A DNA stretch of 51,363 nt from Candidatus Latescibacter anaerobius SCGC AAA252-E07 (GCA_000403035.1 AQSL01000164.1:1-51363); one strand, 5' to 3'. Shown: positions 14,001 to 48,150, counted from the first letter of the stretch. Notes: a model not told the origin generated them from the sequence alone. A program made the numbers and translations.

Positions 14001-14065
14001 TTGATGACAGAGGGAAAAAATATACCCGTACTTTACCAGCCGGTGAAGGAACGGAAACATTTTAA
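11018..14065 (+). CDS. Heparinase II/III-like polysaccharide lyase family protein (large, secreted)
   Basis: Signal peptide and an N-terminal region of about 300 aa with no assignable domain. HPRLWF, an alginate-lyase-like helical region and the INHQHLDQGSFWL motif are typical of the heparinase II/III C-terminal domain. Confidence 0.75.
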   Translation: MKSQTIVPVVLFALKCLTGTPSGAETVLEPFTYSQNFETRELSAWASYPIWQDAAYDEKMRVNTIVPGDPNISLEQMVIPYSNVDNYAGAQKKLDMYLVPGSTISLRYYLKTQLHVAFFKVRLAAGPDGKVDYTVPGPPTNRWVWLTVQYTDFIRENPRLKGKNIKVNALAVLAKFPDADPSMCLYLGLDDIVFDGARAMHFQFYEPEMYKLSEWKPYIPNIHYQKNDSFTLSGQWPLNADNVSLEIAYFTDPSKTVFKSNLKKKNDTWSLNKLTLAFPEGLYHGTLTAYKSKKKLSDTGFTLYIAPKHIGGNHPRLWFDSSGEKRIKSRLSDERFREVKDHILSNAEKSRKDYPVEDIVYDIDQFPEEEWIPTLTPWFNRIRGWGGSIYNNALAYKLLDDTEAGIYAKDIFLKICTFPTWLHPWMHKRGRHIYYPIGELGMELAIGYDLLYSLFDENEHTVLQNALMKQIIQGAHKGYVEDDLVTCNTSNWVAHITGGSLMCQGVLYGDKHDFGCMEPYFTGIILKNYDLIQKVIDSDGAYGEGYGYYNFSMLSWSKSLPAVEHVFNVDLSGKIDKSYRELLWAGVVKEKNYFYFGDTGGNLGPLTNWAWLLDKYKDPRLGWLYNHLKNGETFMDVLYETRDVPKQDPFDEKPVTFFRNIGTTVFKSGWDSDDFVFVMRTGPFINHQHLDQGSFWLRDRGSTFIEERHGSTYYMQKLYQSHYIQPIAHSTILLDNNYQSQRTGDPLVFAQGFEDYAFLEQFLDGENAAFSSGNIGRLYWGNVKEMTRNVLYLKPRTLLMVDVIIPADRDVEAKLLYQTHYLNDITACDTLSTIQKDGNILHILHVYPEHIDVKAEEMPHFYYTLLNEKQLKKEGFLSVSAKTTGNPLVMANILTTVTGEKPALSADTHDGFVKGAINGKPYVFSTKPGFVYDAGDCITDALAVTWDGSRFFAAKCTSFEKPGSFSLYSNKAITCEISRNQIHYYHSEEDEVVFIDDRGKKYTRTLPAGEGTETF

Positions 14066-14282
14066 GAGGGCGGTAAAAAAGTATTTTCACGCGCCCCGGC
14101 TTGTAATATATGACTGTGTTGCTGTCAAGGGCAAGACAAGCCGGCCATACATAAAAATTGTTATTTATTATTGACTTACCCCTTGTAATATATTCTCTTT
14201 ATTCATGCTAATTATACTTTATTGGCCGGCCCTTGACAGCTTAAATTCTGACCCTGATAGTTTTTCACAACGCTTTTAAAAG
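14062..14282 (+). repeat. Modular intergenic repeat, copy A (long subfamily)
   Basis: TTAAGAGGGCGGTAAAAAAG..TTTTCACGCGCCCC hairpin, then GCTGTCAAGGGC...GCCGGCC, a 77-nt AT-rich insert, then GGCCGGCCCTTGACAGC. Ends with N17-GATAGT-TTTTTCAC. Its first TTAA contains the lyase stop codon. Confidence 0.85.
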
Positions 14283-14366
14283 ATATAGAATGTATCAGGA
14301 ATCCTGAATAAGAATCTCTATTATCCGTAAGCATCCTTGATTCATACTATATGAACACGCACATGC

Positions 14367-15146
14367 ATGGAACAGCCGATGTTGAAAGAGCAATTCAGTC
14401 TCAAAGACAAGAAAGGGATTATTACCGGGGCTTCACGCGGTCTCGGCAGAGGCATGGCGGAAGGACTCGCAGAAATGGGCGCCGAGCTTGTGATAGCTGC
14501 ACGTGATATGAAACAACTAAAAAAAGCTGCCCGGGAACTGCAGGTTCATGGAGTCAAAGTTGTACCGGTAAAAACCGATGTCGGGAAAGTTGATGATTTA
14601 AAACGCCTTGTTGAAACAACATGCACTGAACTGGGCGATATTGATTTCGTCTTCTGTAATGCGGGTATCATTCGACGCGGCGTTTCCCATGAACATTCAG
14701 TTGAAGATTTTGATGAGATGTACCGTGTGAATGTGCGCGGTGTTTTTGTTCTTGCGCAGCTTGCCGCCCGGGTAATGATTGAACGCAGTCATGGCGGTTC
14801 AATTGTGATAACCGATTCGGTGGTATCCTCCCATGGAAGTCTTAACGTCCCCGGTTATGTGTCCTCAAAGGGCGCCCTTAACTCGCTCATCAGAGCGCTT
14901 GCGAACGACTGGGGACCTTATAACATACGTGTCAACGGTATTGCGCCCGGTTTTTGCGAAACCAAGATGACCGAGGGTATCCGTAATAATCCCGAACGTT
15001 ATAAGTATCTTACTGCCAGAATGGCGCTCAAACGATGGGGAAAACCTGAGGATTTTGCCGGTGCAGCAGTCTATCTTGCCAGCAATGCCTCAAACTATGT
15101 AACCGGAACCACACTTCATATCGATGGAGGTTTTCTATCGATGTAA
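14367..15146 (+). CDS. SDR family oxidoreductase (KduD / gluconate-5-dehydrogenase-like)
   Basis: TGASRGLGRGMA glycine-rich motif, NAG, the YVSSK catalytic motif and a C-terminal HIDGG. Length of 259 aa. Confidence 0.85.
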   Translation: MEQPMLKEQFSLKDKKGIITGASRGLGRGMAEGLAEMGAELVIAARDMKQLKKAARELQVHGVKVVPVKTDVGKVDDLKRLVETTCTELGDIDFVFCNAGIIRRGVSHEHSVEDFDEMYRVNVRGVFVLAQLAARVMIERSHGGSIVITDSVVSSHGSLNVPGYVSSKGALNSLIRALANDWGPYNIRVNGIAPGFCETKMTEGIRNNPERYKYLTARMALKRWGKPEDFAGAAVYLASNASNYVTGTTLHIDGGFLSM

Positions 15147-15185
15147 GTTTTTTTTAGAAATGTGATAAATACAAAAACCTGTATT

Positions 15186-15337
15186 CTTAAGAGGGCGGTG
15201 AAGAAATCCTTTTTCACGCACCCTGTAATGAAATATATATCGTTTGTAGCTGTCAAGGGCATGTAAATCAAGGCTTCGCTCTGACCCTTGACAGCTTGAA
15301 TCATGAAACTGATAGTTTTTCACCAGAATTTTAAATA
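15186..15337 (+). repeat. Modular intergenic repeat, copy B (short subfamily)
   Basis: About 90 percent identical to copy C over the first 75 nt. The 11-bp arms GCTGTCAAGGG (15249-15259) and CCCTTGACAGC (15285-15295) pair. Ends with TTGACA-N17-GATAGT-TTTTTCACC. Confidence 0.85.
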
Positions 15338-15342
15338 ACGTT

Positions 15343-15373
15343 AAAAAAAAAGGGTGATTGAATGAACTCACCA
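15343..15373 (-). terminator. Possible intrinsic terminator of the symporter gene
   Basis: On the minus strand, a short GGTGA/TCACC stem is followed by a 9-nt U-tract just after the stop at 15426. The stem is weak. Confidence 0.35.
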
Positions 15374-15425
15374 TCATTTTCTTAGCCATATCGTCCGGAC
15401 ATTTCCTCCAGACCCGTTTTCATTA

Positions 15426-17186
15426 TCACACACCACGGCGGACAGTTTTTATCCACAATATAAATCCGATAACAAACATAATTCCTCCGGCCAGAACATC
15501 GAGAACCAGGGCTTTCGTGTCCCCGGAGAATTTCATCACTATTCCCAGAAATGCGAGAATGAAACCCAGAATCATCACTGCAATACCGACTGCATAAAAC
15601 GGCGACTGTCGTCCTCCCAGTGTTTTTTCAACTTTCGGTTCGGTGGGAATATCCATCTGTTTGAAGAATTCCTTTACGCGTACCTTCTCTTTTTCCGGCG
15701 ATAAAAATAAGGAGGAACCGATCCACATTCCAAGAATGGTAACGATAACATTGACGCCTATTGATAAGGAATTATACCCCTGTTTCAGCCAGTATGCAAG
15801 CGTTGCATCAACCTCCACACGATCACTATAAACACCGAGGAGAATCATATTAATAATCACGAGGCCCACACCGGAAAGCGTACCGCACAGTACTCCGGTT
15901 ATTGCGCCGCGGGAATTAAGTTTTTTAATAATCAGCCCGCCGAGAAGCGGAAGCATTACAGCCGGACCGAGCGCTCCAGTGGCTTTATTCATGATGTCAT
16001 ACAGGTTCAATCCCCTGATATAGTTTATCCCGATGGCGCAGAAAATGGTTATCAAACCGATAATTGCGGTATTAATCCGTCCCCACTTTATGAACGTCTT
16101 TTCATCGGCATCCGGTCTGATAACTTTCCCGTAAAAGTCCTTGGTCAGAACACCTGACATAACATTGTAATCGCTTCCGAGCGTGGACAATGTGGCGCTG
16201 AACATGCCTGCAACCATGAGTCCCATAATTCCCGGAGGCAGTATCTTAAGGGACAGCGCAACATAGGCGTATTTACTGCCATCCTCGGTAGCGCCCAGTT
16301 CCGGCAGTAATATTCGTGCTGCCATGGCGGGCAGGAAAAATATCACGAAACCTACCGATGAAAGTCCCACCATGGTGAGCGCAACTTTTTTGGCATCCGA
16401 TTCGGTTGCCACACAATTGTATTTCTGTACGAGCGCCCATGTTGCGTTGTAACTTATGCCAATCAGCACTGCAAACATAACCCAGTCAAACGCGCCGTAC
16501 GGAGGGGAAAGAAGACGAAAAAAACCTTCCGGGGTTTTTGCGATAAGTCCTCCGAATCCGCCTACTGCATAAATTGAAAGCGGAAACAAAATAAGAACCG
16601 CAAGACTCAGGACGGTGAATTGTATGAAATCCGTTACCAGAACTGCCCACTGCCCGCCGAGCAATGTGTAAAGTATCATTATAATACCGACAAAAACGAT
16701 GCATACTTCAAGGGTGAACCAGCTCTGTCCGATCGCCATAACCAGGAAAATAGCAGTGGAATAAACTCTCAGGGCATTATCGATAAACCTGAGCGGAATT
16801 CCGGTCCAGACGAACAACTGGTGTACAAATCTGTTATAGCGCTGTCCTATGAATCCGAGAGGTGTCATTACTCGTGCGCGCCGCCACTTCGCAGAAAAAA
16901 AGAAGGCCGCTATGAGCATAGCCGGGACTACCACCCAGCATAAAGTTACCGAAACAAAGCCATACTTATACGCAAGCTGGGGATATATTACGAATGAAAG
17001 CGCACTAAACGATGCCATCCAGAGGGAAATACCCGCAAGCCACCAGGGAACCGCTGCTCCCGCAGCGAAATAGTCTTTCGATTTTTTAATAAAACGCTTG
17101 AAGAATATACCGATAAAAATTATTACGCAGAAATAAGCAATAATTAAAGCATAATCAACCACATGCAGCGATCCAAAGTCCTGCAT
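15426..17186 (-). CDS. Sodium:solute symporter (SSS) family transporter
   Basis: 586 aa with about 13-14 TM segments. The N-terminal pattern (DY..AG...PWW..G.SL.A) is typical of SSS transporters. Confidence 0.85.
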   Translation of the reverse strand: MQDFGSLHVVDYALIIAYFCVIIFIGIFFKRFIKKSKDYFAAGAAVPWWLAGISLWMASFSALSFVIYPQLAYKYGFVSVTLCWVVVPAMLIAAFFFSAKWRRARVMTPLGFIGQRYNRFVHQLFVWTGIPLRFIDNALRVYSTAIFLVMAIGQSWFTLEVCIVFVGIIMILYTLLGGQWAVLVTDFIQFTVLSLAVLILFPLSIYAVGGFGGLIAKTPEGFFRLLSPPYGAFDWVMFAVLIGISYNATWALVQKYNCVATESDAKKVALTMVGLSSVGFVIFFLPAMAARILLPELGATEDGSKYAYVALSLKILPPGIMGLMVAGMFSATLSTLGSDYNVMSGVLTKDFYGKVIRPDADEKTFIKWGRINTAIIGLITIFCAIGINYIRGLNLYDIMNKATGALGPAVMLPLLGGLIIKKLNSRGAITGVLCGTLSGVGLVIINMILLGVYSDRVEVDATLAYWLKQGYNSLSIGVNVIVTILGMWIGSSLFLSPEKEKVRVKEFFKQMDIPTEPKVEKTLGGRQSPFYAVGIAVMILGFILAFLGIVMKFSGDTKALVLDVLAGGIMFVIGFILWIKTVRRGV

Positions 17187-17220
17187 TCATCCCCCTCTTT
17201 TTATGCATCAATCATTTTTT

Positions 17221-18252
17221 TTATAAAGGCGGCTCTGAAACTTTTACCGTGTCTCCGCTTTCAACTGAACGGTGAATTGCATCCAGGACTGCTGTCGAAC
17301 GCCATCCGTGATATGCGGTCACCTGCGGTTCCCTGTCCTGGGCAATATCATCTATGAAGCTGTTGATACATGAAGGAAACGCTCCCACCCACTTATCAAA
17401 TACCTTATAGTTGAGGAGAGTACGAGGCCATTTGAAACTTTCAGGGCTTGACATTTCGATAGCTTCGGTCTTACGGTCGAGATGAATATGCCCGTGCTCG
17501 CCGACAACTTCCATAAACGAATCGGGCATAGCCGGATGGGTATTGGGGTATATCCATGTCGATTCGAAGGTTGCAAACCCGCCTTTCGAGAACTTCACCA
17601 GACCCTGCATGGCATCATAGGTATCCCAGCCATATTTTTCCTTGAGTACGCGTTTTATTCCGAAACCTTTCACCTCAACGGGATCATCATCGAACCACCA
17701 TGTCATCAGGTCGATATCATGACCGGACAAAAACCACATCGGGGAACTGTCTTTTGCCCATGGGAGCATCTCGGTCGGGACATAAATCGGATTGTTCTTC
17801 CGTGCATAACCCATGATACAGTTCCCGATTTTTCCCTCACGTATCATATTATATGTTGCATTATAGGGTGCAAGCCAGCGGTGATTATAGGAAACCTGGA
17901 ATTTCAGTCCGGTCTCACGGACTTTTCGTACTATGTCCGCGGCTTCTTTCTCATCGGTTGTCAGAGGTTTTTCGCAATGGACATGGATACCCGCATCCAG
18001 GCAGGCCATGACCGGTTTGTAATGGAACCAGTCCGGAGTTGCGATAAACACTGCATCCGGCTTCTCGGCATCGATCATCTTTTCATAATCGGTATATGTC
18101 CTTTCAAAACCGTATTCTGCTTTCCCCTCGGCAAGTCTTTTTTCATCAAGGTCTGCAGCGGCGGTAACCTTGACCAAAGGATTTCTCGTAAGAACATTCG
18201 CAAGGTTCTTGCCCATGATTCCAAGCGCAATAATGTTAACTTTGAATTCCAT
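17221..18252 (-). CDS. Gfo/Idh/MocA family oxidoreductase
   Basis: The N-terminal Rossmann segment is IIALGIMGKN, and there is an EKPL motif. The start is taken at MEFKVNII with an AAAGGAGAAG RBS. The ORF track extends 32 codons upstream. Confidence 0.85.
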   Translation of the reverse strand: MEFKVNIIALGIMGKNLANVLTRNPLVKVTAAADLDEKRLAEGKAEYGFERTYTDYEKMIDAEKPDAVFIATPDWFHYKPVMACLDAGIHVHCEKPLTTDEKEAADIVRKVRETGLKFQVSYNHRWLAPYNATYNMIREGKIGNCIMGYARKNNPIYVPTEMLPWAKDSSPMWFLSGHDIDLMTWWFDDDPVEVKGFGIKRVLKEKYGWDTYDAMQGLVKFSKGGFATFESTWIYPNTHPAMPDSFMEVVGEHGHIHLDRKTEAIEMSSPESFKWPRTLLNYKVFDKWVGAFPSCINSFIDDIAQDREPQVTAYHGWRSTAVLDAIHRSVESGDTVKVSEPPL

Positions 18253-18398
18253 GACTTCTCCTTTACAGGTTAACTGTGTCGTGCGAAATTTTACGTAAAA
18301 TATGTAACCTGTGTTATTATTACACAACCAAAATATATTACAGATCAATTAAAATTCATGCAACATTCTTATCCTTCCGGAAAAGAATTGAATCATCA

Positions 18399-20726
18399 TT
18401 ATTTACTCCGAAGGTTAATCGCCGGTATTTCCTGCTTTTCTAATCCCGGACCCTCGATGTACACTTCAAAAATTGTGCCGCCGGTTTCGGAAAAAAAAGT
18501 CACCTCGATGGGATGTTCGCCCGATTTGAGCGCTATGAATCCGTTGCGTTCACGTACCGGGTCACGGCCGCCATTTATGACCACCCGGTTTCTACCTATC
18601 GAAAGAGCCGAATAACCGTCCGAACGTGTATAAAAAGTATATACACCGTCCTCTTGTACCTTCAGATAACCCTTGAAAGTAAAACCGAATGTTTCACTGT
18701 TACCCTCAAACGGCAGTGTAAGGCATTCAACCGTACCGGTTTTTCGGGGTTTTATGCTGTTGAACCGCGGAAGTTTTGTCCATTCACCCTCAAAGTAACG
18801 GTAAACCAGTCCCGGTGAAGTTTGCTTCGTTTTTAACGGGTTTACCGGCTCGAGTGTCCGGGCGTGTATCGATTTTTCAATGTCGGCACGGAACTCATCC
18901 ACGGTAAAATTGTATTCCCTGAGTCTTGTTACACCGGCTTTACCGGCAATATCGCAAAAACGTTCTACCCTCCGGGTAAATGACGGATTGACATCCAGCC
19001 GGAATTTCTCATGGTCAATGAGGTACGCATCACCCCGTGTTCTGTCCCGGGCGATGATTGCATAATCAACACTGAGACGTGCTATACGGACATGTTCCAG
19101 CACCGCAGGCATGTCTTTTACCGCAGTCTCGGCTTCTGTCCAGAGGGAATCGGCATGTACCAGAATCTCGTCAGACAGGTATTCTGCATCGGGCCCCTGC
19201 CAGACACCCATATGTATGGTATCCTTCTCGACTTTATCGTGAATCATGTCTATGTATTCTCTGATAGAACCGGCTGCAGCGCCGTAGACACCCTCGAGGA
19301 ATTCATTTATGGCAGTATCCTCATCATAGCCGGGATTCCAGAGCAGCTTGGCGTTCAAATATCCGCTCAGTTCAGAAAGCTCTCCCCGGGGACTTGTATA
19401 CACATCCTGCTGGAATACACCCTTTACCTTGTTCTGTACAAAAAATCTGATATTGTCATCACGAACCCTGAGATTGGGGAAAGGAACGAAATAATGACTG
19501 AACGAAGTTACATAATTCCATATCCAGAGCCGATCGGCTACTTTCGACCATTTTCTGAGATCATCGGCAAATTCGATGTTCTCCGGGCTGTCACAGCTTT
19601 CCAGAGGGTGAGAAAAGCAGCACTCGATAGTGCTGAGCCTGATTACCACATTATGACGTGGACGAATGGTTTTCGGCGCTTTCCGTGACCACTGGTATGC
19701 AAGGGTTTCGATCACCCTGTCAGGGAACTCCTTTTCAACTTCCTCGGCGACACGGTTTACCATCCGGAGAACCGGAGCGATCTGCGTTCCTTCTTTTTCA
19801 GCAAGAGCCTGGCATTTCGGACACTCGCAGTAATTATCCCAATCATTCTGGGAAACGGAAATAACATAGGCATGGGGGTTTTTGCGAAATGCATCCAGAA
19901 CACCCTCGGTCATAATCCGAACCACATCTTCATTCGTACAGCAAAGCTGGCTTCTATTCCGGAGCCTTCGCCCATTGACCAGAGAAAAATATTCCGGGTG
20001 CTTTTTGAAATATTTTTCGGGCGGGACAAGTTTCTCAAATGTATGGACAAACATATCGGGAACCCATTCGATCTTGCCGCCGTGTTGAATTTCAAGACCG
20101 CCGTCCTTGCTGTTCCTGTTCATGCGGTTACGTGCAGCCCAGTCACCGTCAAATGCTTCCCAGACATATGGTTCACGGTATTCCAGGATTGGAATTGAGG
20201 TATCTTCCAGCGGGGACAGTTCCAGATGTCCATAGCGCGGGATACTGCTCACATCCGGTGTAAACCATCGACAGCCGAAATGATCCTCCAGAAGACCGTA
20301 GACACCATACATAGTGCCCCTGAGTTCACCGCCGGCGATGACCAGATGTCTGCCGACCGTTTTCAGCACATAACCTTCATCTCCCAGTTTTTCGAAATCA
20401 ATATTCACGCCGATCTGCTCGAGGTGAGCGTTATTCCCCAGTATAATTTCCCGTTTCCCTACCGGCAAGTGGTCCGAGACAATGGGCACTTCGGCGCCTG
20501 TCATCTTGTAGAGGAACATTTGTAGTTCTATCGCACCATGCATGGTAGAAGGTGAAGCATCATCGGCAACCACAATCCTGTATCTTGAACGGCCGTTACG
20601 GGCAATTTCGAGAGCCGGCTGTTTCCGCATCTGCACACAACCCTCGGTAAACAAGAGTACTGTTACCAAGCAGATTATTATACGATAATTCGAGTTTTTT
20701 TTCACTCCTGAATAAAACCTTTTCAA
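18399..20726 (-). CDS. DUF4838-like glycoside-hydrolase-related protein with a C-terminal PA14 domain
   Basis: Signal peptide. The N-terminus (RYRIVVADDASPSTMHGAIELQMFLYKMTG) and size resemble DUF4838 proteins. The C-terminus (GLVYRYFEGEW...GYLKVQEDGVYTFYTRSDGYSALSIG) is PA14-like. Confidence 0.65.
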   Translation of the reverse strand: MKRFYSGVKKNSNYRIIICLVTVLLFTEGCVQMRKQPALEIARNGRSRYRIVVADDASPSTMHGAIELQMFLYKMTGAEVPIVSDHLPVGKREIILGNNAHLEQIGVNIDFEKLGDEGYVLKTVGRHLVIAGGELRGTMYGVYGLLEDHFGCRWFTPDVSSIPRYGHLELSPLEDTSIPILEYREPYVWEAFDGDWAARNRMNRNSKDGGLEIQHGGKIEWVPDMFVHTFEKLVPPEKYFKKHPEYFSLVNGRRLRNRSQLCCTNEDVVRIMTEGVLDAFRKNPHAYVISVSQNDWDNYCECPKCQALAEKEGTQIAPVLRMVNRVAEEVEKEFPDRVIETLAYQWSRKAPKTIRPRHNVVIRLSTIECCFSHPLESCDSPENIEFADDLRKWSKVADRLWIWNYVTSFSHYFVPFPNLRVRDDNIRFFVQNKVKGVFQQDVYTSPRGELSELSGYLNAKLLWNPGYDEDTAINEFLEGVYGAAAGSIREYIDMIHDKVEKDTIHMGVWQGPDAEYLSDEILVHADSLWTEAETAVKDMPAVLEHVRIARLSVDYAIIARDRTRGDAYLIDHEKFRLDVNPSFTRRVERFCDIAGKAGVTRLREYNFTVDEFRADIEKSIHARTLEPVNPLKTKQTSPGLVYRYFEGEWTKLPRFNSIKPRKTGTVECLTLPFEGNSETFGFTFKGYLKVQEDGVYTFYTRSDGYSALSIGRNRVVINGGRDPVRERNGFIALKSGEHPIEVTFFSETGGTIFEVYIEGPGLEKQEIPAINLRSK

Positions 20727-20926
20727 GCAATCTCCATAAATTTAAGAGTAAAATAATAACTCATTGTGAATAGTTACGTTCTATAATTTCTTCTGTGCGC
20801 CGAAAGTGCTCAGCGCCCTGCGAGAAGAAATAAAGTAATGACTATTCGCTAAACGCTGACTGCTGAAAATAGTTTACAATATGACATATGAATAGTACTG
20901 TATTTTGAAACAGTTTTTATCATCAT

Positions 20927-22198
20927 TCATTTCAATTTCAAAGGTCTGGAGCGCTCTTCTTCGATTTTCTTTTGATATCCGCTTTCACGGTATGCTTCAA
21001 GAGGCACAGGATGCAATCCACGGCGGAAGTATGATTCCATGACAATCGGTCCGGTATCCGCATGCAGGAGCGCTTTTTCATATTCTACATTTGAAGCGAT
21101 AATATCCAGATTCTCCTGGCACATTTTTTGTTCCGCAGTATTCAAAAGAACCGCTTTCGCTATCGACCGCTTTATCGCATCGAGAGATTTCAATATCGAG
21201 GGGATAAGCTGTTCAGCCCGTGCCATCTGATCAAAAGCATACGACCAGTTTTTCGAAGGGTCATCATTGAATATCACATTCCCTCTCAACAGTTCATAAA
21301 ATAACCTGGCCATTTCATAATCCGCCTGTACGGAATGGTCATCATCCGCAGCATACCGTGTATTAAAGTGGAACCCGCCGCGAACTCCGAACATAAGCAG
21401 GGTAGCGACAATCTGTTCAATATTCGTGCCATGGTGATGATGTCCCAGATCAATGAGCACAGCGCCCTTTTCTCCGAGGAGCCGCGACAGTTCTCTGGCG
21501 GTACCCCAATCCGGCACTGTAGTACTGTAAGTCCCCGGCTCGAAAACTTTGTATTCAAACAATACTCTGTCAAGCTTTCTTTTCATGTCCTGAGGCACCT
21601 CATTCCAGAATTCTATTACACACTCTTTCATGAGACCGATTTTGTCCTGCAGTTCACGCTGTCCCGGATAATTGGTTCCATCGGGAAACCACAGACTCAG
21701 AATACCGTTACCGAGTTCAACCGCAATGCGTGCTCCGAGCACTGTCTGTTCAATATACCGTTTTCTTATCGCGGGATTTTGCGAAGCAAAACTACCGTCT
21801 TCCGATCCTGCAAGAAAATAGGTTGGGCTTATCGAACCCATTTTTACTCCCCGGGCTTCAAGCTCCTCTTGTACCCGCTGTGCCTTCCTGTAATCAGCGG
21901 TTATACCATCTTCGGAAAAAAACCACAACATATGCTGTCCGACCATTGGAGTTGATTCGGTGAGCCGGTGTATCAACCCGGCATCTTCGGCAATTTCTTC
22001 CGTTGTATGTGCGGCACCGCCTGTCCCTGCACCCTCGAATCTTCCCCCACCTCCGAATCCATCCCAGAGCTGCCAGGCGGGAACTTCGATAGTAAAATGC
22101 ATTGTATACTCAATCGCACGTTCAACAGTTTCCTCGCCAAAAACAGCTTTTAGAAAGTCCAAACCCTTATTCTTAGAATTTTCAAGTTGCTGTGCCAT
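20927..22198 (-). CDS. Xylose-isomerase-like TIM-barrel sugar isomerase (L-rhamnose isomerase, Pseudomonas stutzeri type, likely)
   Basis: 423 aa. The VPAWQLWDGFGGGGRF segment and LIDLGHHHHGTN metal-site-like motif resemble the short L-RhI family. Assigned from memory of the family. Confidence 0.55.
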   Translation of the reverse strand: MAQQLENSKNKGLDFLKAVFGEETVERAIEYTMHFTIEVPAWQLWDGFGGGGRFEGAGTGGAAHTTEEIAEDAGLIHRLTESTPMVGQHMLWFFSEDGITADYRKAQRVQEELEARGVKMGSISPTYFLAGSEDGSFASQNPAIRKRYIEQTVLGARIAVELGNGILSLWFPDGTNYPGQRELQDKIGLMKECVIEFWNEVPQDMKRKLDRVLFEYKVFEPGTYSTTVPDWGTARELSRLLGEKGAVLIDLGHHHHGTNIEQIVATLLMFGVRGGFHFNTRYAADDDHSVQADYEMARLFYELLRGNVIFNDDPSKNWSYAFDQMARAEQLIPSILKSLDAIKRSIAKAVLLNTAEQKMCQENLDIIASNVEYEKALLHADTGPIVMESYFRRGLHPVPLEAYRESGYQKKIEEERSRPLKLK

Positions 22199-22345
22199 CT
22201 TTATACCCCTTTATTTGAGTTATAATCAGTTTCTTAAAGAGTCTTACCTGAAACATATTAATTTTGATGTATTATAATTCTATAATAATCCAGGTTTACT
22301 TTTGAAACCGATGATGGGAAAAATAGTGTAGTATTGAGTTATTGT

Positions 22346-22496
22346 CTTAAGAGGGCGGTGAAAAGGCCCTTTTTCACGCACCCTGTAATGAAATATATAT
22401 CGTTTGTTGCTGTCAAGGGCTTGTAAATCAACGCTTTGCGTTGACCTTTGACAGCTTAAGTCCAGAAACTTATAATTTTTCACAAGGCTTTTTAAT
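22346..22496 (+). repeat. Modular intergenic repeat, copy C (short subfamily)
   Basis: All modules are present. The inner hairpin TCAACGC-TTT-GCGTTGA is perfect. The right arm carries a G-to-U-compatible change (CCTTTGACAGC). Confidence 0.85.
22448..22476 (+). promoter_or_regulatory. Perfect consensus sigma70-type promoter inside repeat copy C
   Basis: TTGACA (22448-22453), a 17-nt spacer, then TATAAT (22471-22476). It points towards the 3' end of the convergent HD gene. Confidence 0.4.
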
Positions 22497-22593
22497 TATT
22501 ACAATATATTTTATTATTATCCTCTCCGGCAATGGCTTCACCTCAATCGAGATACTTGTATATCATTACTATAATTATTTTATTTTTAAATAG

Positions 22594-23160
22594 TTACAAA
22601 CCTATCTCTTCTGCAACTTCTCTCATACCCATAATCACATCGGTACATAATTCGTTCAACTCCATTCCGAGCATTTCAGCGCCTTTTCGAACAATGTCCC
22701 TGTTGACTCCTCCGGCAAAACTCGGCTGCTTCCATTTTTTCATAACCGATTTTGCTTTCATATCCATAACGCTTTTCGATGGCCGTACGAGGGCACAGGC
22801 AGTCACAAGGCCGGTTAGTTCATCAATTGTATACAGTGTCTTCTCAAGCGTACTTTCGGGCTTAACATCGCTACATATACCCCAACCGTGGGATACAATT
22901 GCACGAACATAATCATCCGGCCAGCCGTTTTCTTCAAGTATTTCTTTTACTTTCGTGCAGTGCTCTTCCGGAAACTGTTCGTAGTCCAGATCATGAACGA
23001 GCCCAACGACACCCCACTTTTCCTCTTCCTCACCATGCTTACGCGCCATATACCGCATGACTCCCTCGACGGCTTTTGCATGATTAATAAGCGCCTCGTT
23101 GGTATTGAACCGTTTTAAAAGTGCGAATGCTTCTTCTCGATCGGGTATATGTTTTTCCAT
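22594..23160 (-). CDS. HD domain phosphohydrolase
   Basis: 188 aa. HAKAVEGVMRYMA...GLVHDLDYE supplies the H...HD motif of small HD-superfamily hydrolases. Confidence 0.8.
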   Translation of the reverse strand: MEKHIPDREEAFALLKRFNTNEALINHAKAVEGVMRYMARKHGEEEEKWGVVGLVHDLDYEQFPEEHCTKVKEILEENGWPDDYVRAIVSHGWGICSDVKPESTLEKTLYTIDELTGLVTACALVRPSKSVMDMKAKSVMKKWKQPSFAGGVNRDIVRKGAEMLGMELNELCTDVIMGMREVAEEIGL

Positions 23161-23868: not shown

Positions 23869-23998
23869 AATATTTAAAAAAACTTGTATGAATAAAGCTT
23901 TCAAAGTTACAAAGTAAAAAAATATTGCCTTTTTTAAAGATATGTTATATATTGTTATATGTGTTATTGTGTATATTTCCTTCTTTAGAGGTGATCTC

Positions 23999-24352
23999 AT
24001 GAATATTCGAGACATTGGAAATACCGCAAATTCTCCCGAGTCCTCACGGTTTGACGCTGAAAATGTTAATATCGACCATCCAATCGAACGCGGTGCTCAT
24101 GAGGTTATACCTGAAAGACAGGACCATACTGATGAACATCATGATGAATATGTCCGTTCTTTAACGAACAATGTCAAGAGTACATTATATGAAGTTAATA
24201 ATGTCAGAATGTCGAGGATTCGACAGATCAGAAGCCAGATTCGGGAAGAAAAGTATGATCCGAGCGGAGAGAAAATTGCAGAAAAAGTTGTTGATATTCT
24301 TTTACCTTTAGGGATGAAAACCCTTTCTGTATATAAATACAAGAAATTATAA
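23999..24352 (+). CDS. flgM: Anti-sigma-28 factor FlgM-like protein
   Basis: 117 aa. The C-terminus VRMSRIRQIRSQIREEKYDPSGEKIAEKVVDILL fits the FlgM pattern (I..G.Y.vd...iA.k). AGAGGTGA RBS. Confidence 0.55.
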   Translation: MNIRDIGNTANSPESSRFDAENVNIDHPIERGAHEVIPERQDHTDEHHDEYVRSLTNNVKSTLYEVNNVRMSRIRQIRSQIREEKYDPSGEKIAEKVVDILLPLGMKTLSVYKYKKL

Positions 24353-32565: not shown

Positions 32566-32738
32566 TATAAAACGTGGTGAAAAACCACCTTAGGAGAGGA
32601 ACATGCTGTCAAGGGTCAGCGCGAAGCACTGCTTTACTTGCCCTTGACAGCGTATGTAGGGGTAGGGCTTGACTCTACCCTAAATATAGATTTCATACAT
32701 GGGTGCGTGAAAAAGGTCTTTTTCACCGCCCTCTTAAG
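32566..32738 (-). repeat. Modular intergenic repeat, copy D (inverted orientation)
   Basis: The reverse complement carries all modules, plus an extra small hairpin insert (GGGTAG..CTACCC) in module 2. The -10-like hexamer is degenerate (GGTGGT). Confidence 0.8.
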
Positions 32739-38347: not shown

Positions 38348-38519
38348 TTTGATATCCCCTGCTCAGATTCGGTAACGTTTGACAAACTTCATGTAATATG
38401 AAACTATCGAATTATATCTTTGAAATCAAGTAAATAAACAATTGTAATCAGTTTGAAAAGAACCGATACGCTTTTCTGTCATTCAATCAGTAAAATTGCG
38501 ACTCTTTGCTACCGGATTT

Positions 38520-41715: not shown

Positions 41716-42353
41716 TCGAAAAAATATATACGTTTTTCACTTTTTTTACAAATGATTTCAATTTCTTTTGTTGTTACAAAGTTCATAATCATTACTGTTA
41801 TTCATCATGATGCTCTTTTAATAAATGTATTGAGTTACACTGATACTATTCGAATTATATATGATTATATATTGATAATTTTTAAGTTCTGTAAAAAAAA
41901 CAATCAAGTTTCATGTTTAATCTGTCGAGGGTCACCGTGAAGTTTTCATTTACATGCACTTGTCAGTAACACATGATTATACTATTTACTAATTACAAAA
42001 CAATTATTTAATTCTTATCATTGATACTGATTTCCCGTTTTCGTAATCTATTGTAAAAATAATCTATATAAAGAGCACAACACAATTTTATTCATTCATA
42101 CATGGATTTTCAAGGATTATCTGTAATCCTCTGCAAATCCGATTTTCAAACATATCATCTTAATACAAAATTGTTTATCTTGACCATACATGCTAAATAC
42201 TATATTATTAGACATCCGTGAAAAATATTTTTCATTTAAAAAAGTGTAAATTGTGCAGTTACTAAAAAAACATACTATTTGTTTTTTTCGATTACATCAA
42301 GATTAAAAAGTCAAGTATTTTAATGTACAAATACCTTTAGTATAAGGCAAAAT

Positions 42354-44051
42354 ATGGCATTTTCAATACCCGATAAAATTTTTAAATTTCTCTACTTTTT
42401 GCTTTCGATTCTTTCAATTGTAGGTGTAATTGAAATTTTACTTGTGAAAGGTTTTTTCTTCGAAAAACCTGATTATTTACTGATAATTACTCTCATTACA
42501 CATATTTCAATAATTACGCTTTATTTATTCTGGATAGCAGGGAGTATCTTAAAAACCGGTTGGAATCCAAGAACAATAATGCCTGACCTCATTCTTACAG
42601 GTCTTCTTGTGGTCATGAAATTTCCCGTTCAACTGGGAGGAAGTCTCGTTTCATTCAGAATTATCTTTTCGCTTGCCGCCGTTTTTTTTAAAAGAACCCA
42701 AATATCTACATTTTTTGCACAGATACGTCTTAATCCCTCAAGGCTTCTTATTCTATCGTTTATAGCGGCAATACTGGTTGGAGTTATGCTTTTGATGTTT
42801 CCTGCAGCAACAGTAGATCATAGAGGGGCGAGCTTTGTAGATGCTGTTTTTACATCAACTTCCGCAGTATGTGTAACCGGGCTCATCGTACAGGACACCG
42901 GTTCCTTTTTTTCAGTTTTCGGGCAGATAATAATTGCAATACTTATACAACTCGGCGGACTCGGGATTATGACATTTTCCAGCCTGTTTGCAATGATTGT
43001 TGGCAGACATTTGGGTTTAATGCATGAAGAACACATGCGTGGGATACTGGACCAGGGCAACAGAGTTGATATATACAAGCTCATTTCACATATTATCATT
43101 ATAACTGTAGTCTTCGAATCATTTGGCGCTTTTCTCCTTTTTTTCAAATGGCTGCCGGGTATGAGTATTCAGAATGCCGCATTTGATGCGGTTTTCCATT
43201 CCATTTCCGCATTTTGCAACGCTGGATTCAGTCTCTATTCCGACAGTCTCTCACGGTATGTCGATGATGTCTATGTAAATGTGGTTTTTATGACACTTAT
43301 AATTTTTGGCGGACTCGGATTTTTTGTAATCAATGATCTACGACAAAATTCCCGTCATTTTAATCCGCTTTCAATACGATGGCACCGGATTTCAGCTCAC
43401 ACGAAAATTGTAATAATAACCACTATGTTCCTTTTGTTTACAGGCACATTGTTTGTTTTCTTTTTTGAATTTGACAACACCATGCTGAAACTTTCAACAT
43501 CGGGTAAACTTTTAGCCGCTGCGTTTCAATCCGTCACTTTACGTACCGCGGGTTTTAATACTTTAGAAATCAGCGGTTTAAAAGATACGACTCTTTTCCT
43601 GTGTATTGTGCTGATGTTTATTGGTGCTTCACCTTCTTCTACCGGTGGAGGGATTAAAACGACAACGTTTGCCGTTCTGATTCTGTCGGTGCGTTCATTA
43701 TTATTATCAAGGAATAAAGTTGAGGTGTTCAACAGAACAATTTCCTCCCAGACAGTCTATAAATCTGTTGCAATTTTACTTTTTTCATCTTCATTTCTTA
43801 TTTTATTCTGTGTATTGTTACTCGAAACACAGGAGGGCTCTTTTTTGGATATTCTATTTGAGGCTACTTCAGCAATTGGTACAGTCGGACTTTCCACCGG
43901 TGTAACCAACCATCTCAACGGAATCGGGAAAATTCTCGTATCATTACTGATGTTTATCGGCAGAGTTGGACCTCTGACCGTTGCTCTTGCGCTCGGAGAG
44001 GTGAGAAAAGTAAATGTAGAGTTTCCTTCAACAAACATATCTGTCGGATAA
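42354..44051 (+). CDS. trkH: TrkH/KtrB family potassium transporter subunit
   Basis: 565 aa polytopic protein with repeated selectivity-filter-like motifs (TGL, GLG, NAGF, STGGGIKT, TVGLSTG). Confidence 0.9.
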   Translation: MAFSIPDKIFKFLYFLLSILSIVGVIEILLVKGFFFEKPDYLLIITLITHISIITLYLFWIAGSILKTGWNPRTIMPDLILTGLLVVMKFPVQLGGSLVSFRIIFSLAAVFFKRTQISTFFAQIRLNPSRLLILSFIAAILVGVMLLMFPAATVDHRGASFVDAVFTSTSAVCVTGLIVQDTGSFFSVFGQIIIAILIQLGGLGIMTFSSLFAMIVGRHLGLMHEEHMRGILDQGNRVDIYKLISHIIIITVVFESFGAFLLFFKWLPGMSIQNAAFDAVFHSISAFCNAGFSLYSDSLSRYVDDVYVNVVFMTLIIFGGLGFFVINDLRQNSRHFNPLSIRWHRISAHTKIVIITTMFLLFTGTLFVFFFEFDNTMLKLSTSGKLLAAAFQSVTLRTAGFNTLEISGLKDTTLFLCIVLMFIGASPSSTGGGIKTTTFAVLILSVRSLLLSRNKVEVFNRTISSQTVYKSVAILLFSSSFLILFCVLLLETQEGSFLDILFEATSAIGTVGLSTGVTNHLNGIGKILVSLLMFIGRVGPLTVALALGEVRKVNVEFPSTNISVG

Positions 44052-44165
44052 AACACATGGAAAGAACATCGGAATATCACATTATCATCGGGGAAATATA
44101 ATAATTCTTCAATCATAACAGAATATGAAACCACGTGCAAAAAGAGCGAGGTTGTAAAAGAATGT

Positions 44166-44386
44166 GAGGAGGGCGGTGAAAAAGTCTTTTCACACGCCCC
44201 TGTTTGAAATATATGTCTGTGGTGCTGTCAAGGGCAAGACAAGCTGGCCTTTATGTAATTACATTGTATTTCAATATATTACTGCAAACAGAAATTTGTC
44301 GGTTCTTTAAAAACCGTGCTGCAAGGGCCAGCTCTTGACAGCGCATTACCCGGAGATTATGAGTTTTTCACCAGACTTTTAGAAGC
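44166..44386 (+). repeat. Modular intergenic repeat, copy E (long subfamily)
   Basis: Same architecture as copy A. The inner stem is GCTGGCC/GGCCAGC, a compensated change versus GCCGGCC/GGCCGGC in A. It has a 76-nt AT-rich insert and ends with TTGACA-N17-TATGAG-TTTTTCACC. Confidence 0.85.
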
Positions 44387-44589
44387 ATTAGGAAAAAATA
44401 ACATTTGTATTTTTTATGTTGTTTTGTGAATACTGTATAAATCTTTTTTGCATGTAATGATTTTAATTAAACCGGATATACTTTATATACGATATATGAA
44501 TGTGCTGGCTCCGGAATATAGGTACTTTGCAGGCATAGATTTGTAGCTGCATGATCCGTACTAATACTTATTGCATAAAGGTAAAAAAA

Positions 44590-45279
44590 ATGAAGCGATT
44601 TCTTGTTATCGGCCTGGGACAGTTCGGTTCCGAACTTGCTAAGATTCTTCATAGTAAGGGTGCCGAGGTTATTGCTGTTGACAGCAATATGGACCTTGTC
44701 GAAGATTTTAAGGATTTGGTTACCAAAGCAGCATGCATTGACTCTACGGACAAAGAAGCTCTTGCTACCTTACAACTTGAACAAATCGACGCAGCCATTG
44801 TAGCAATCGCAGAAAACCGTGAGGTGAGTATTCTCACAACTGCAATTTTAAACGAGCTCGGAGTGGAAACGATAATTGCCCGGAAATCTGAAAATTTACA
44901 CGGTAAAATACTGGAAAAAGTCGGGGCATCACGAGTCATATCACCGGAACTCAATGTTGCCGAACAACTTGCCCGTAGTCTTATTTCACCAGGGCTTTTG
45001 GAACACATCGCGCTTCCCGACGGACATACGATTTCCCAGGTAGAAGCGCGTGAAGATTTCTACGATAAAACACTTATCGAACTCGATTTACGGCATAATT
45101 ACGGTCTTCTTGTCGTTGGCATACAAAGGAAAAAACCCAGGGTTAACGAATCCGGAGAGATTTTTTTTGAAACCGAGAACATCAGTCTTCCCTCTGCTAA
45201 AGAAATAATAAAGAAAGACGATATTTTAATTCTTGTCGGCATGAAAGAGGATATTGAATCTTTCTTGATGAGGAGATAA
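44590..45279 (+). CDS. trkA: TrkA/KtrA potassium uptake regulatory subunit (RCK_N plus RCK_C)
   Basis: MKRFLVIGLGQFGSELA Rossmann motif and a C-terminal TrkA-C-like segment. The start is taken at ATG 44590. Confidence 0.85.
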   Translation: MKRFLVIGLGQFGSELAKILHSKGAEVIAVDSNMDLVEDFKDLVTKAACIDSTDKEALATLQLEQIDAAIVAIAENREVSILTTAILNELGVETIIARKSENLHGKILEKVGASRVISPELNVAEQLARSLISPGLLEHIALPDGHTISQVEAREDFYDKTLIELDLRHNYGLLVVGIQRKKPRVNESGEIFFETENISLPSAKEIIKKDDILILVGMKEDIESFLMRR

Positions 45280-45285
45280 TCTCCG

Positions 45286-46662
45286 ATGAAACATCAACGA
45301 AAACCAATACTTAAAAAAATAACTGCCTTTTTTATACATTTATCCATACAGCGAAGGATAACTGCAGCTATATTTTTAGCATTTATACTTATTCTTCCCT
45401 CGGTATTCATGTCGTTGTTCTATTTTTCCAGTCTTTTAGAGGAAATTACGATAATCATCGAAACAGATGTAAAACTGGGAAAAATGGCGAATGATCTTTC
45501 ATTGACAATGCTCGATATAAGGCGTTATGAGAGAAACTACCTGGTATTCGGCAGTGCGGCAGAACGTGAGAAGGTTGAAAAATTAATTGTACATGCCGAT
45601 TCAGCACTCAAAATTGCCTATGAAATCGCGCCTGAATCCGAGCGGAAATCGGTACAAGAGCTTTCCCGGCAATTTACCGTGTATTCCAACAGTTTCAGTA
45701 TGCTTGTTGAACACACTTTGCAAAACCCTCCGGAAGACAGGATTAACACCATTAAAAACCGTTTTTCAAAAAGCTTCAATGAATTCCAGTCAAATTACAG
45801 ACATATTCTCACCATGCTCAATCAGGCCTCGGAGGCAGAAAGGGATTCGATCATCGCCATAGCTAGCGAGCATCTGGATGCCTCATCATTTGACAGGCTT
45901 ATCAACATTGAAACTTCTTCGGATCAATCCGTACTGCCGTCCTACATCCAGGAAAATCTTGACAATTCCCGGCAGTCTTTTCTGCTACTGGCGCATGATC
46001 TTGCAGAAAAAAGCTGGAAAAATGTGTTAACCCGAAAAAACGAAAGCCAGCGTATAGAAGCACGGGCAATACGTAATATTTTATCCGTCCTTATACTGAC
46101 CGGCATTATCTGTATTTTTTTAGTCACACTGCTGCCCAAAAGAATTGTCAGACCTATTAAAGTATTAAACCGGATTTTAAAACATGCCGGGAAGGGAGAT
46201 TTCAGTACACAGGCGCCTATTTACACCAATGACGAAATTGGCGAGCTTGCAGGTAACTATAATGATGTGCTGGATCAATTGCGGCTTTATGATAACCTCA
46301 AAACAGGTAAAATTGCTTCCCAGAAACGTATCCTGGACCGTCTGCTGGAAAATCTTCCCATGCCGGTATGTATCGTGACCGTTAATTTCATTGCTCCTTT
46401 TTATAACACATCGTTTGCACAAATTTTTGGTTCATCCGTGCCTGTTAAACCTCCTGATGGAGGTCTGGAAATTGAAAATATTGAAGTGATGAATAATTTT
46501 GCAGATGAACTCAAGAAAAAAATGTCGGGTACAAAAAATAACATTTTTCTTGATATACATGACCGTGACGGTGAGGTTGTCAAGTTAAAAGGACGTCTTA
46601 TCCGAAATTCCGTTATGGAACTTGAATCTGTTGTTATCGTCGGTGTTTCCGAAAAAACTTAA
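45286..46662 (+). CDS. Membrane sensor protein: helical periplasmic domain, HAMP, PAS-like C-terminus and no recognisable output domain
   Basis: Two TM segments. The HAMP segment is PIKVLNRILKHAGKGDFSTQAPIYTNDEIGELAGNYNDVLDQL. No H-box, GGDEF or MCP signalling motifs are seen. Confidence 0.65.
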   Translation: MKHQRKPILKKITAFFIHLSIQRRITAAIFLAFILILPSVFMSLFYFSSLLEEITIIIETDVKLGKMANDLSLTMLDIRRYERNYLVFGSAAEREKVEKLIVHADSALKIAYEIAPESERKSVQELSRQFTVYSNSFSMLVEHTLQNPPEDRINTIKNRFSKSFNEFQSNYRHILTMLNQASEAERDSIIAIASEHLDASSFDRLINIETSSDQSVLPSYIQENLDNSRQSFLLLAHDLAEKSWKNVLTRKNESQRIEARAIRNILSVLILTGIICIFLVTLLPKRIVRPIKVLNRILKHAGKGDFSTQAPIYTNDEIGELAGNYNDVLDQLRLYDNLKTGKIASQKRILDRLLENLPMPVCIVTVNFIAPFYNTSFAQIFGSSVPVKPPDGGLEIENIEVMNNFADELKKKMSGTKNNIFLDIHDRDGEVVKLKGRLIRNSVMELESVVIVGVSEKT

Positions 46663-46665
46663 AAA

Positions 46666-47664
46666 ATGGGGATAATTATTTTGGAGCGTATAGGAATAAC
46701 TACCACTATCCCTTCCGAAGTTGTATGGGCTGCAGGCGCAGTCCCGGTTGACCTTAACAATTTGTTCATAACCTCGGAACGCCGGAAAGAGTATATAAAA
46801 ACGGCCGAACGCGATGGATATCCCCGTAATATATGTGCATGGATAAAAGGTATGTACGGCGCTTTGCAGTACCATTCTGACATTAAGACTGTTATTGCGG
46901 TAATCCAGGGAGACTGTTCAAATACCCATGCGCTCATGGAAACGCTGCAACTCAAGGGTATCACCACAATCCCATTCGCTTATCCCTACAATCATAATGC
47001 ACAGACGATTGCATATGAAATATCACATCTTGCCGAAAAACTCGGTACGGATATGGACTCTGCCGAAAAAATGCTAAAAAAACTCAACCCAGTCCGCTTG
47101 CTGCTTGACCGGCTCGATAACATGACATGGAGGGATAACCGGGTAACCGGTTACGAAAACCATTTATGGCTCGTGACATCAAGCGATTTCAACGGTGATA
47201 TTGAGAAGTATTCACGGGAGCTTTCCATTTTTCTCGATACGGCGCAGAAACGAACTCCATGCAAAGATTCCGTTCGTCTCGGATACATCGGCGTTCCACC
47301 CATACTCGATGATATTTATTCCTTTGTCGAAGAGTATGGCGCACGGTTTGTGTTTAACGAGGTACAGCGTCAGTTTTCACTGCCAAAACGTACGGGCGGG
47401 CTTGTAGAACACTATCTCGCCTATACCTATCCCTACGATATTTTTCACCGGCTTGATTATATAATTCCCGAACTTAAGCGCCGTAGAATTCAGGGTGTCG
47501 TTCATTATGTACAGAGTTTCTGCCACCGTCACATCGAGGACCTGATTATTCGTAAAATAATTGCACAGCCAGTGCTGACCATCGAGGGCGAATCCCCGGG
47601 GTACGTTGACGAGCGTACAAAAATACGCCTGCAGGCATTTATTGAAATGCTTGAAGCACAATAA
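46666..47664 (+). CDS. 2-hydroxyacyl-CoA dehydratase family protein (HgdB/BcrC-like)
   Basis: 332 aa with conserved Cys contexts (IQGDCSNTHALMETL, YVQSFCHRH). The N-terminus TTTIPSEVVWAAGAVPVDL is typical of the family. Confidence 0.7.
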   Translation: MGIIILERIGITTTIPSEVVWAAGAVPVDLNNLFITSERRKEYIKTAERDGYPRNICAWIKGMYGALQYHSDIKTVIAVIQGDCSNTHALMETLQLKGITTIPFAYPYNHNAQTIAYEISHLAEKLGTDMDSAEKMLKKLNPVRLLLDRLDNMTWRDNRVTGYENHLWLVTSSDFNGDIEKYSRELSIFLDTAQKRTPCKDSVRLGYIGVPPILDDIYSFVEEYGARFVFNEVQRQFSLPKRTGGLVEHYLAYTYPYDIFHRLDYIIPELKRRRIQGVVHYVQSFCHRHIEDLIIRKIIAQPVLTIEGESPGYVDERTKIRLQAFIEMLEAQ

Positions 47665-47954
47665 AATGTATTCTTTTCGTAAGAGTCATAGGGCAAAAGC
47701 ATAGAATTGAAAAAAATCGACAGTAGTCGCTGATTGCTCAAATCCATGCGATTACATAGATGCCTGCCCCCCGAAATCCAATTTAGTGATAAACGAAAGC
47801 AGAGTAAGTTATACAGTTTAAAATAAGAAAACGTGATTATCTCCAATTGAATTTGAACTTACGATGCATGTAAAAAATGGGGGATCGCCAGGATAATTAA
47901 CAGCACTTGATTTTCTTTCACTCAGAATCTATATTATTTGCTTAATTTCATTAT

Positions 47955-48150
47955 GAAGGTGACGGAGAAAAAGATTATTTTTTTACGTACCCTCGAATGA
48001 AATGCATGACTTCTGTTGCTGTCATCGGTCTATTCGACCCGACAAGCCAGTCTCGTCGACCAGGCAGAAGAGCAAGTAAATCAACGTTTCTTGCTTACCC
48101 TCGACAGTTTAAATCCTGATCCTGATAGTATTTCTCAGGACTTTAATATA
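47955..48150 (+). repeat. Modular intergenic repeat, copy F (degenerate)
   Basis: Recognisable remnants of every module: GGAGAAAAAG..TTTTTTACGTACCC, GAATGAAATGCATGACTTCTGTTGCTGTCA, CAAGTAAATCAACG and CCCTCGACAG-N17-GATAGT. It ends 24 nt before parA. Confidence 0.55.

Follow-up and report, generated by a model that had tools for sequence, protein, structure and literature searches.

The Correia elements (NEMIS) of Neisseria are intergenic repeats of approximately 100-155 bp. They occur in high copy number, carry terminal inverted repeats, form a stable transcribed hairpin and fall into subfamilies by their internal segments. They have a TA duplication, 26-bp near-perfect repeats and an IHF site. 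Outward promoter activity has been documented for them (PMC10969869). The insertion sequence (IS) IS5 of E. coli duplicates a 4-bp Py-T-A-Pu target (PMC5493358). The ends of IS5-family elements in Porphyromonas and Neisseria (ISPg1, ISPg4, and ISNme1) begin with GAG (PMC4596501). An abundant intergenic repeat was studied here in a stretch of 51,363 nucleotides from Candidatus Latescibacter anaerobius SCGC AAA252-E07 (GCA_000403035.1 AQSL01000164.1:1-51363), referred to below as the window. [quoted passage not shown]

The original prediction, made from the window sequence alone, described six copies with a common order of modules, M1 to M4. All six were present where it placed them and, when the intervals were read and aligned, all six had that order. 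The count did not hold, as a hidden Markov model (HMM) of the family found a seventh. A repeat finder recovered the window copies independently, and the nhmmer E-values for them ranged from 1e-40 to 1e-8. The copies are listed below; short and long forms and subfamilies A to D are described in the paragraph that follows.

14066-14275, plus strand: c1, long form of 210 nt, placed by alignment and HMM, with target duplication TTAA at 14062-14065 and TTAA at 14276-14279.
15191-15330, plus strand: c2, short form, subfamily A, with target duplication TTAA at 15187-15190 and TTAA at 15331-15334, and TTGACA-17-GATAGT at 15288-15316.
22351-22490, plus strand: c3, short form, subfamily A, flanked by TTAA on the left and TTTA on the right.
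32571-32733, minus strand: c4, subfamily A, flanked by TTAA at 32734-32737 and TTAT at 32567-32570.
41884-41972, minus strand: seventh copy, degenerate and 5'-truncated, with M3 and M4 only, found by the family HMM (E = 1e-9).
44169-44378, plus strand: c5, long form of 210 nt, between trkH and trkA, with flanks TGAG and TTAG.
47956-48148, plus strand: c6, degenerate, upstream of parA, with an insertion of approximately 44 nt in the left arm of M3.

The structure of the element was defined on an alignment of 120 copies among the matches listed. It spans GAGGGCGGTGAAAAAG to TTTTTCACCAGGCTT. The leading TTAA that had been counted as part of each copy is the target-site duplication, and the true termini are GAGGG... 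and ...GGCTT. M1 is the hairpin GAGGGCGGTGAAAAAG-loop-CTTTTTCACGCNCCC and M2 is an A/T-rich stretch with ATGAAATAT. M3 is the palindrome GCTGTCAAGGG...CCCTTGACAGC, with an inner hairpin that co-varies and an 8-nt bulge that is conserved (CATGTAAA). M4 consists of a spacer and then TTTTTCAC. The terminal inverted repeats are imperfect, with 11 of 15 positions matching between the left repeat GAGGGCGGTGAAAAA and the reverse complement of the right repeat, AAGCCTGGTGAAAAA. A 9-nt core within them, GGTGAAAAA, is nearly invariant. In M1 the left terminal repeat is taken to pair with an inverted copy of itself that lies next to it. M3 is interpreted as a subterminal palindrome and M4 as a spacer plus the right terminal repeat. 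No IHF site (WATCARNNNNTTR) was seen by eye in M2 or M3. The copies have no coding capacity, as no open reading frame (ORF) was present in either the short (140-152 nt) or the long (210-211 nt) copies. The short form is approximately 146 nt with a 7-bp inner hairpin. In the long form, found as c1, c5 and at five other loci, the inner hairpin is replaced by GCCGGCC...GGCCGGC around an A/T-rich core of approximately 95 nt. The "variable 25-105 nt core" of the first description is not a continuous variation but falls into discrete subfamilies, the short and the long form. Small private insertions were found in c4, which has an additional hairpin of approximately 25 nt between M2 and M3, and in c6. 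Among the metagenome loci (numbered with an L) one copy in L071 had no M3, and in L025 and L015 a different hairpin stood where the right half of M3 would be.

A second, unrelated MITE family was also observed, with terminal repeats CCCCGGATTATTCATA and TATGAATAATCCGGG and a TA duplication. It was located at approximately L037:2155-2325, L210:2500-2830 and from L071:8420 onward. In L037 a B-type copy holds this unrelated MITE within its M3 bulge. In L210 it occupies the spacer upstream of the aldolase gene, the place of c4 in the window.

The distribution of the family was searched using a strict pattern composed of M1 and the left arm of M3. At least 120 stretches of metagenome contigs contained this pattern. 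They came from at least 12 sediment projects, including Ga0315284, SDBV/SDBU, ORXD/OSEO, Ga0114918, and Ga0265594. No match was found in 185,579 GTDB species genomes. An nhmmer search of the window and 777 kb of metagenome loci gave at least 164 matches, at least 125 of them full length (140-152 nt, modal length 145-150 nt). The flanks of the metagenome loci, each of which was seeded on a copy, held approximately one extra copy per 26 kb. The family is therefore abundant outside the window with its module order kept, and it remains, as first described, dispersed, modular, hairpin-rich and strictly intergenic. The element occurs at more than 119 distinct sites. All 119 copies extracted with 40-nt flanks had unique flanks and the information content dropped to zero exactly at the ends. 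Because the flanks all differ and the similarity stops sharply at the ends, the family is a dispersed repeat and not a duplicated regulatory region. The consensus had no blastn match in plasmids and the left-end pattern had no match in viral contigs.

An exact 4-nt direct repeat flanked 51 of the 120 copies. When the right flanks were reshuffled among copies (n = 500) the mean was 13.0 and the maximum 20. There was no enrichment of 5-mers at the flanks of these copies. The commonest duplicated sites were TTAA (21) and TTAG (7), which fit Py-T-A-Pu. Others were CTGA, CGGA, CCGG, GGAG, GAAG, TGAA, CTAA, and ATAA, and the long form was duplicated at TTAA, CTAG, and CTAA. Since many of the duplicated sites are not TTAA, a sequence preference alone is insufficient to explain the matching flanks. 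In 10 of the 120 copies, and in c1 of the window, the duplication lies on the stop codon of the neighboring gene. Insertion at stop codons is frequent because Py-T-A-Pu contains TAA and TAG. The duplication regenerates the stop codon and the neighboring gene stays intact. The left TTAA of c1 overlaps the TAA stop codon of ORF 11018-14065. This stop codon is native and not supplied by the repeat as first thought, as the L025 orthologue ends at the same codon.

Insertion was also evident from the comparison of orthologous spacers. The spacer upstream of the fructose-bisphosphate aldolase (FBA) gene in L211 has no copy and a single TTAA (TGTTTTAAAGGATAAT), while the window has TTAA, c4, and TTAT there. 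The L211 aldolase is in the same 90%-identity cluster as that of the window. This comparison is good but not perfect, with the left side diverged. The spacer between the heparinase-like and SDR genes contains a copy in both the window and L025. The two copies belong to different subfamilies and occupy different target sites, TTAA on the stop codon in the window and TTCG, 15 nt past the stop, in L025. The flanking genes are 69-74% identical at the amino acid level. The window and L025 copies are independent insertions. L081 was compared with the window downstream of the URO-D gene as a candidate empty site and was rejected; synteny breaks there and no clean empty site was present. In Ga0315284 the identity of a copy to its nearest other copy had a median of 94.6% and a maximum of 99.3%, between different loci. 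This high identity and the contig breaks inside copies described below were counted as support for recent activity of the family.

High density, intergenic location, hairpins near both ends and frequent TTAA 5' of the element are also features expected of a palindromic element of the REPIN/REP-like or IS200/IS605-derived type that is mobilized by a Y1 (RAYT/TnpA) transposase, and the original prediction had pointed to such a transposase. It is extremely improbable that the family is of this type. Y1 elements have neither target duplications nor terminal inverted repeats, whereas varied 4-bp duplications flank the copies described here and the inverted-repeat ends are shared with an IS encoding a DDE transposase. 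Neither a Y1 nor a RAYT gene was found in the window. Membership of the REPIN/REP elements was rejected on these grounds.

The candidate parent was located by inspecting solo perfect right ends outside the recognized copies. The IS at L068:82-1586 measures 1505 bp and is bounded by perfect 15-bp inverted repeats, AAGCCTGGTGAAAAA, which are the exact reverse complement of the MITE right terminus. Its single ORF of 462 aa contains the Pfam domains DUF772, DDE_Tnp_1, and DDE_Tnp_1_6. The transposase scored 275.9 bits against the NCBIfam model IS1182 (NF033551, cut-off 270) and 142.4 bits against IS5_4 (NF033581, cut-off 140). The IS was placed between the IS1182 and IS5 families, and this placement is ambiguous because both family models pass. 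The transposase has more than 1300 relatives by protein search. NCBI labels those it names "IS5 family transposase", and one of these is from Candidatus Latescibacterota. Four related ISs with DNA sequence were 1502-1506 bp with similar inverted repeats, and two of the four came from Ga0315284 and Ga0272441, projects which also hold MITEs. All 10 flanks of the five IS copies were Py-T-A-Pu (TTAG, CTAG, CTAA, or TTAA). One flank pair was perfect (TTAG/TTAG in L215/L217). The left end of the IS can be aligned, from the first nucleotide and over 28-39 nt, with the right ends of D- and C-type MITEs.

Other routes to a parent were less productive. Loose GGTGAAAAA motifs paired at 0.6-3.5 kb gave only noise and no multi-copy ORFs were found among the loci. 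A solo perfect right end (AAGCCTGGTGAAAAA) was observed in L054 (approximately 5300-6900), at a distance of 372 nt from the gene of an IS4-family transposase (NCBIfam NF033592, 126.7 bits). L054 was rejected as a partner since this transposase is unrelated and no matching second end was present. The solo end probably belongs to a truncated MITE that has an unrelated IS as its neighbor.

The left end of the IS (L068:100-182 and its equivalents in L212-L217) has a hairpin, GAGCAC-loop-GTGCTT, and the 10-mer ATGTAAATCA, which also occurs in the conserved bulge region of the MITE M3. An inverted repeat (CTTATCTT...AAGATAAGGAG) is present at this end as well and could sequester the ribosome-binding site of the transposase gene. 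The IS was also observed directly beside family members. The order in L217 (approximately 347-2000) is TTAG, IS, TTAG, B-type MITE, TTAG. In L068:1-1590 it is C-type MITE, CTAG, IS, TTAA, and at the end of L212 (1570-1611) it is IS, CTAG, AAGCC.... Abutment of an IS to a family member at exactly 4 nt was found in 2-3 of the five IS copies, far above the expectation from MITE density. End-adjacent targeting or a composite unit could account for this. That the arrangement of IS, Py-T-A-Pu, and MITE represents an undescribed targeting or co-mobilization mechanism of IS5/IS1182 elements is doubtful.

The copies are short (within the 50-1000 bp of MITEs) and non-coding, with terminal inverted repeats and a duplication of fixed length, and they occur at many unrelated sites with presence/absence polymorphism. 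These are the properties of a MITE. An autonomous element with matching ends, encoding a transposase, accompanies them, although the left terminus of the MITE matches at 11/15 positions only. Taken together they make it very likely that the family consists of MITEs of approximately 146 bp (short form) and 210 bp (long form), without coding capacity, which insert with a 4-bp duplication. A DDE transposase of the L068 type would act on the MITE ends and insert them at Py-T-A-Pu, preferably at TTAA or TTAG. The hairpins may be kept for transposition, through binding of transposase or of a host factor, or by palindrome-templated or template-switch repair. The outward TTGACA/-10 motif described below would drive transcription of neighboring genes as a side effect.

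A number of observations weigh against this explanation. The exact 4-bp duplication is kept in only 43% of copies. The outer 6 nt of the left terminus are GAGGGC in the MITE and AAGCCT in the IS, and this terminus has the 11/15 match noted above. In three to four of the five IS copies the two flanks differ from each other, though these are always Py-T-A-Pu. No IS copy was found in the window, nor in the 777 kb around the MITEs with the exception of L068. M3, the bulge, and M2 are conserved across subfamilies beyond the needs of a minimal MITE. Two subfamilies keep a -10-like hexamer at one shared position despite their differing sequences, which hints at selection besides transposition.

The hairpins were analyzed in both RNA and DNA folds. 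Copy c3 folded as RNA formed the M1 and M3 hairpins at -42.4 kcal/mol (z = -3.9), and the same two hairpins formed in the DNA fold of c1 (z = -2.6). RNAalifold predicted almost no structure on the 120-copy alignment owing to alignment gaps, and explicit pair counting was used in its place. Standard pairs occupied 94.7% of cells compared to 38-47% in controls with slid partners. Changes on both sides were found in six of the seven pairs of the M3 inner stem, and the observed covariation was reached by none of 500 shuffles. The changes in M1 of subfamily D were compensated (GGGGGCTGTG...CACAGGCCCC). Such pairing, double changes, and fold z-score are what a structured non-coding RNA gene would give, with the unit of approximately 150 nt as the gene and the two hairpins and conserved bulge as its functional product. 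That the family encodes such an RNA is nevertheless very improbable. The mismatches (G-T 66 vs A-C 106) gave no plus-strand wobble bias, and the absence of this strand-specific signature is the behavior of a DNA palindrome. The double changes mainly separate subfamilies and so represent few independent events. The unit is without a conserved upstream promoter or downstream terminator, its genomic context and orientation are random, and it has terminal inverted repeats, target duplications, and a matching transposase. At the gathering score Rfam found only two tRNAs in the window. At E-values up to 10 the matches in window positions 14000-22600, which cover c1-c3 only, were at chance level. The sole match overlapping a copy was the MIR169_2 microRNA on c1 (18.4 bits compared to a gathering score of 50). 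This agrees with the original prediction, in which the sequence was not recognized as a known repeat element. As there was no wobble bias, no Rfam family, and few independent double-change events, it is argued that the structure is that of a DNA palindrome rather than of an RNA.

Promoter-like sites were called as TTGACA, a spacer of 16-18 nt, and a hexamer with at least 4/6 matches to TATAAT including A2 and T6, a consensus which may not be that of Latescibacterota. An outward motif of this form was present at the right end of 83 of the 120 copies. TTGACA lies within the right arm of M3. Subfamily A has GATAGT at 17 nt and subfamily B has GATATT at 18 nt, so the -10-like hexamer proposed for M4 held for these two subfamilies. 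It was absent from subfamilies C and D. In the window c3 has a perfect TTGACA-17-TATAAT (12/12) at 22448-22476, facing out of the right end, which is the best promoter-like site in the region. The match to the consensus was 10/12 in c1 and c2 and 9/12 in c6; c4 and c5 had none. Outward transcription from individual copies is plausible, as in Correia and BrickBuilt elements. No T-run followed the M1 or M3 hairpin and neither was called as a terminator in the scan. Relative to the flanking ORFs 42 copies were co-directional, 28 anti-directional, 16 divergent, and 12 convergent (p = 0.12 and 0.085). As the orientation is near random, a host function remains unproven and a family-wide, orientation-dependent one is not supported.

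These motifs could also be read as an exapted regulatory cassette, comprised of a portable terminator-like hairpin and an outward promoter, by which the host would insulate and drive adjacent genes, with M3 as a candidate operator for a regulator and transposition as merely the means of delivery. The outward motif in 83/120 copies, reached in subfamilies A and B via different hexamers, would fit such a cassette, as would the 12/12 match in c3. M3 is a perfect palindrome of the kind bound by dimeric regulators. Copies lie a median of 44-64 nt from gene ends, and those aimed at the 5' end of the next gene are slightly in excess (58 vs 40, p = 0.085). Correia, BrickBuilt, and other MITEs have documented promoter activity (PMC10969869, PMC4596501). 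The cassette is nevertheless unlikely. The orientation bias is non-significant, and transcription would be antisense for 40 of 98 copies. Subfamilies C and D are without a -10, the hairpins are without a T-run or a called terminator, and TTGACA is fixed simply as part of the palindrome. The promoter consensus used may also not be that of this phylum. The broader proposal that the copies are more than selfish DNA, acting as genome-wide cis-regulatory cassettes bound, for example, by a transposase-derived or host regulator, is similarly improbable. It would draw on the invariant M3 palindrome with its bulge and on the outward promoter retained by the two commonest subfamilies. If it were true, hundreds of Latescibacterota genes would be wired through one mobile module. 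The MITE explanation, with outward transcription as a possible side effect, is preferred.

The host is an uncultured sediment lineage of Candidatus Latescibacterota, as indicated by protein sequence comparison. The best named relatives of the Ddl protein of the window were all Candidatus Latescibacterota (65-68% identity), and this affinity is consistent with the T9SS sorting domain in ORF 8411-9814. The H+-PPase of the window had a best match of 67% identity in GTDB, and its taxonomically mixed matches were uninformative. Host contigs fall into at least two G+C groups, approximately 42% (window and SDBV) and approximately 50% (Ga0315284), with orthologous proteins 67-74% identical between them. 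The window genes between the copies are ordinary chromosomal genes. They encode ribosomal proteins L9, S6, and L25, pth, H+-PPase, a heparinase-like protein, SDR, an SSF transporter, fructose-bisphosphate aldolase, ddl, trkH/trkA, and parA/parB. No transposase was found in the protein annotation of the 51-kb window. Short-read (Logan) contigs of the window's own strain (L204, L205, L206-L209, and L123) end inside MITE copies. One contig of 1025 nt, for example, is made up of the SDR gene flanked on each side by half a MITE. Because short-read contigs end inside copies, the repeats fragment the assemblies of this lineage, and such fragmentation may explain the lack of a match in the GTDB species genomes.

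Two further features of the window were observed. A 43-nt direct repeat, 93% identical (TAT..CGTCAA.TCATTTCTGGGCCCCCTTTCCATACAGTATG), is located at 9822-9864 and 10755-10797. It lies directly upstream of two neighboring minus-strand genes, 8411-9814 (with the T9SS sorting domain) and 9956-10684, and may be a shared 5' leader or promoter. A FlgM-like anti-sigma-28 ORF is present at 23942-24352 (Pfam PF04316, E = 5.6e-7). As this ORF occurs in a genome encoding a T9SS domain, the host probably has flagella.

The family is an undescribed, very-high-copy MITE family with a candidate parent IS, in a candidate phylum without cultured members. No report of MITEs in Candidatus Latescibacterota was found in the literature. 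The copies break short-read assemblies of these organisms, and automated screens can misread them as structured RNAs or regulatory motifs. Their promoter-like sequences and stable hairpins stand beside the housekeeping genes trkA, parA, and fructose-bisphosphate aldolase, and may cause strain-level differences in expression. The understanding of MITEs in general is unchanged.

In comparison with known systems, the REP/BIME/REPIN and ERIC sequences are similar in being abundant intergenic palindromic repeats which fold into hairpins. REP/REPIN elements are dependent on a RAYT Y1 transposase and are without terminal inverted repeats or target duplications, and none of these traits apply here. 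The likeness to promoter-bearing MITEs such as Correia elements, noted in the original prediction, was borne out. Size, copy number, terminal repeats, intergenic sites, outward sigma-70-like promoters, the hairpin, and the presence of subfamilies are all shared with Correia. Membership of the Correia elements was rejected as the duplication and the repeat sequence differ, and the resemblance is functional only. The family has a 4-bp duplication, imperfect 15-bp repeats, and no IHF consensus seen by eye. For Correia no parent IS is established, in contrast to the candidate identified here.

The IS in L068 resembles IS5/IS1182 elements in its DDE transposase with a DUF772 N-terminus, its single ORF, its short inverted repeats, and its Py-T-A-Pu target. 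It differs from IS5 in its inverted repeats (AAGCCTGGTGAAAAA) and passed the IS1182 cut-off only narrowly. The host and Porphyromonas belong to the same superphylum (FCB group). Like the IS5/IS1182-derived MITEs of Porphyromonas gingivalis (BrickBuilt, MITEPgRS, and MITE464) and the Neisseria ATR element linked to ISNme1, the family is short, non-coding, and intergenic. As in those MITEs, the terminal repeats match an IS5-type IS, which in their case is resident, and outward promoter-like sequences are present. The MITE left terminus begins with GAG, as do ISPg1, ISPg4, and ISNme1. There is no sequence similarity to the P. gingivalis and Neisseria MITEs. The copy number is much higher, with seven copies in 51 kb here compared to 10-20 per genome reported for the P. 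gingivalis MITEs (PMC4596501). The 4-bp Py-T-A-Pu duplication is clean while those of BrickBuilt are irregular. The arrangement of two hairpins, with the left repeat pairing to an inverted copy of itself, is also unlike that of those MITEs. The novelty claimed in the original prediction thus stands for a new MITE family and not for a new kind of element or an exceptional one: the sequence family, the host, and the abundance are new, and the kind of element and its mechanism are already known.

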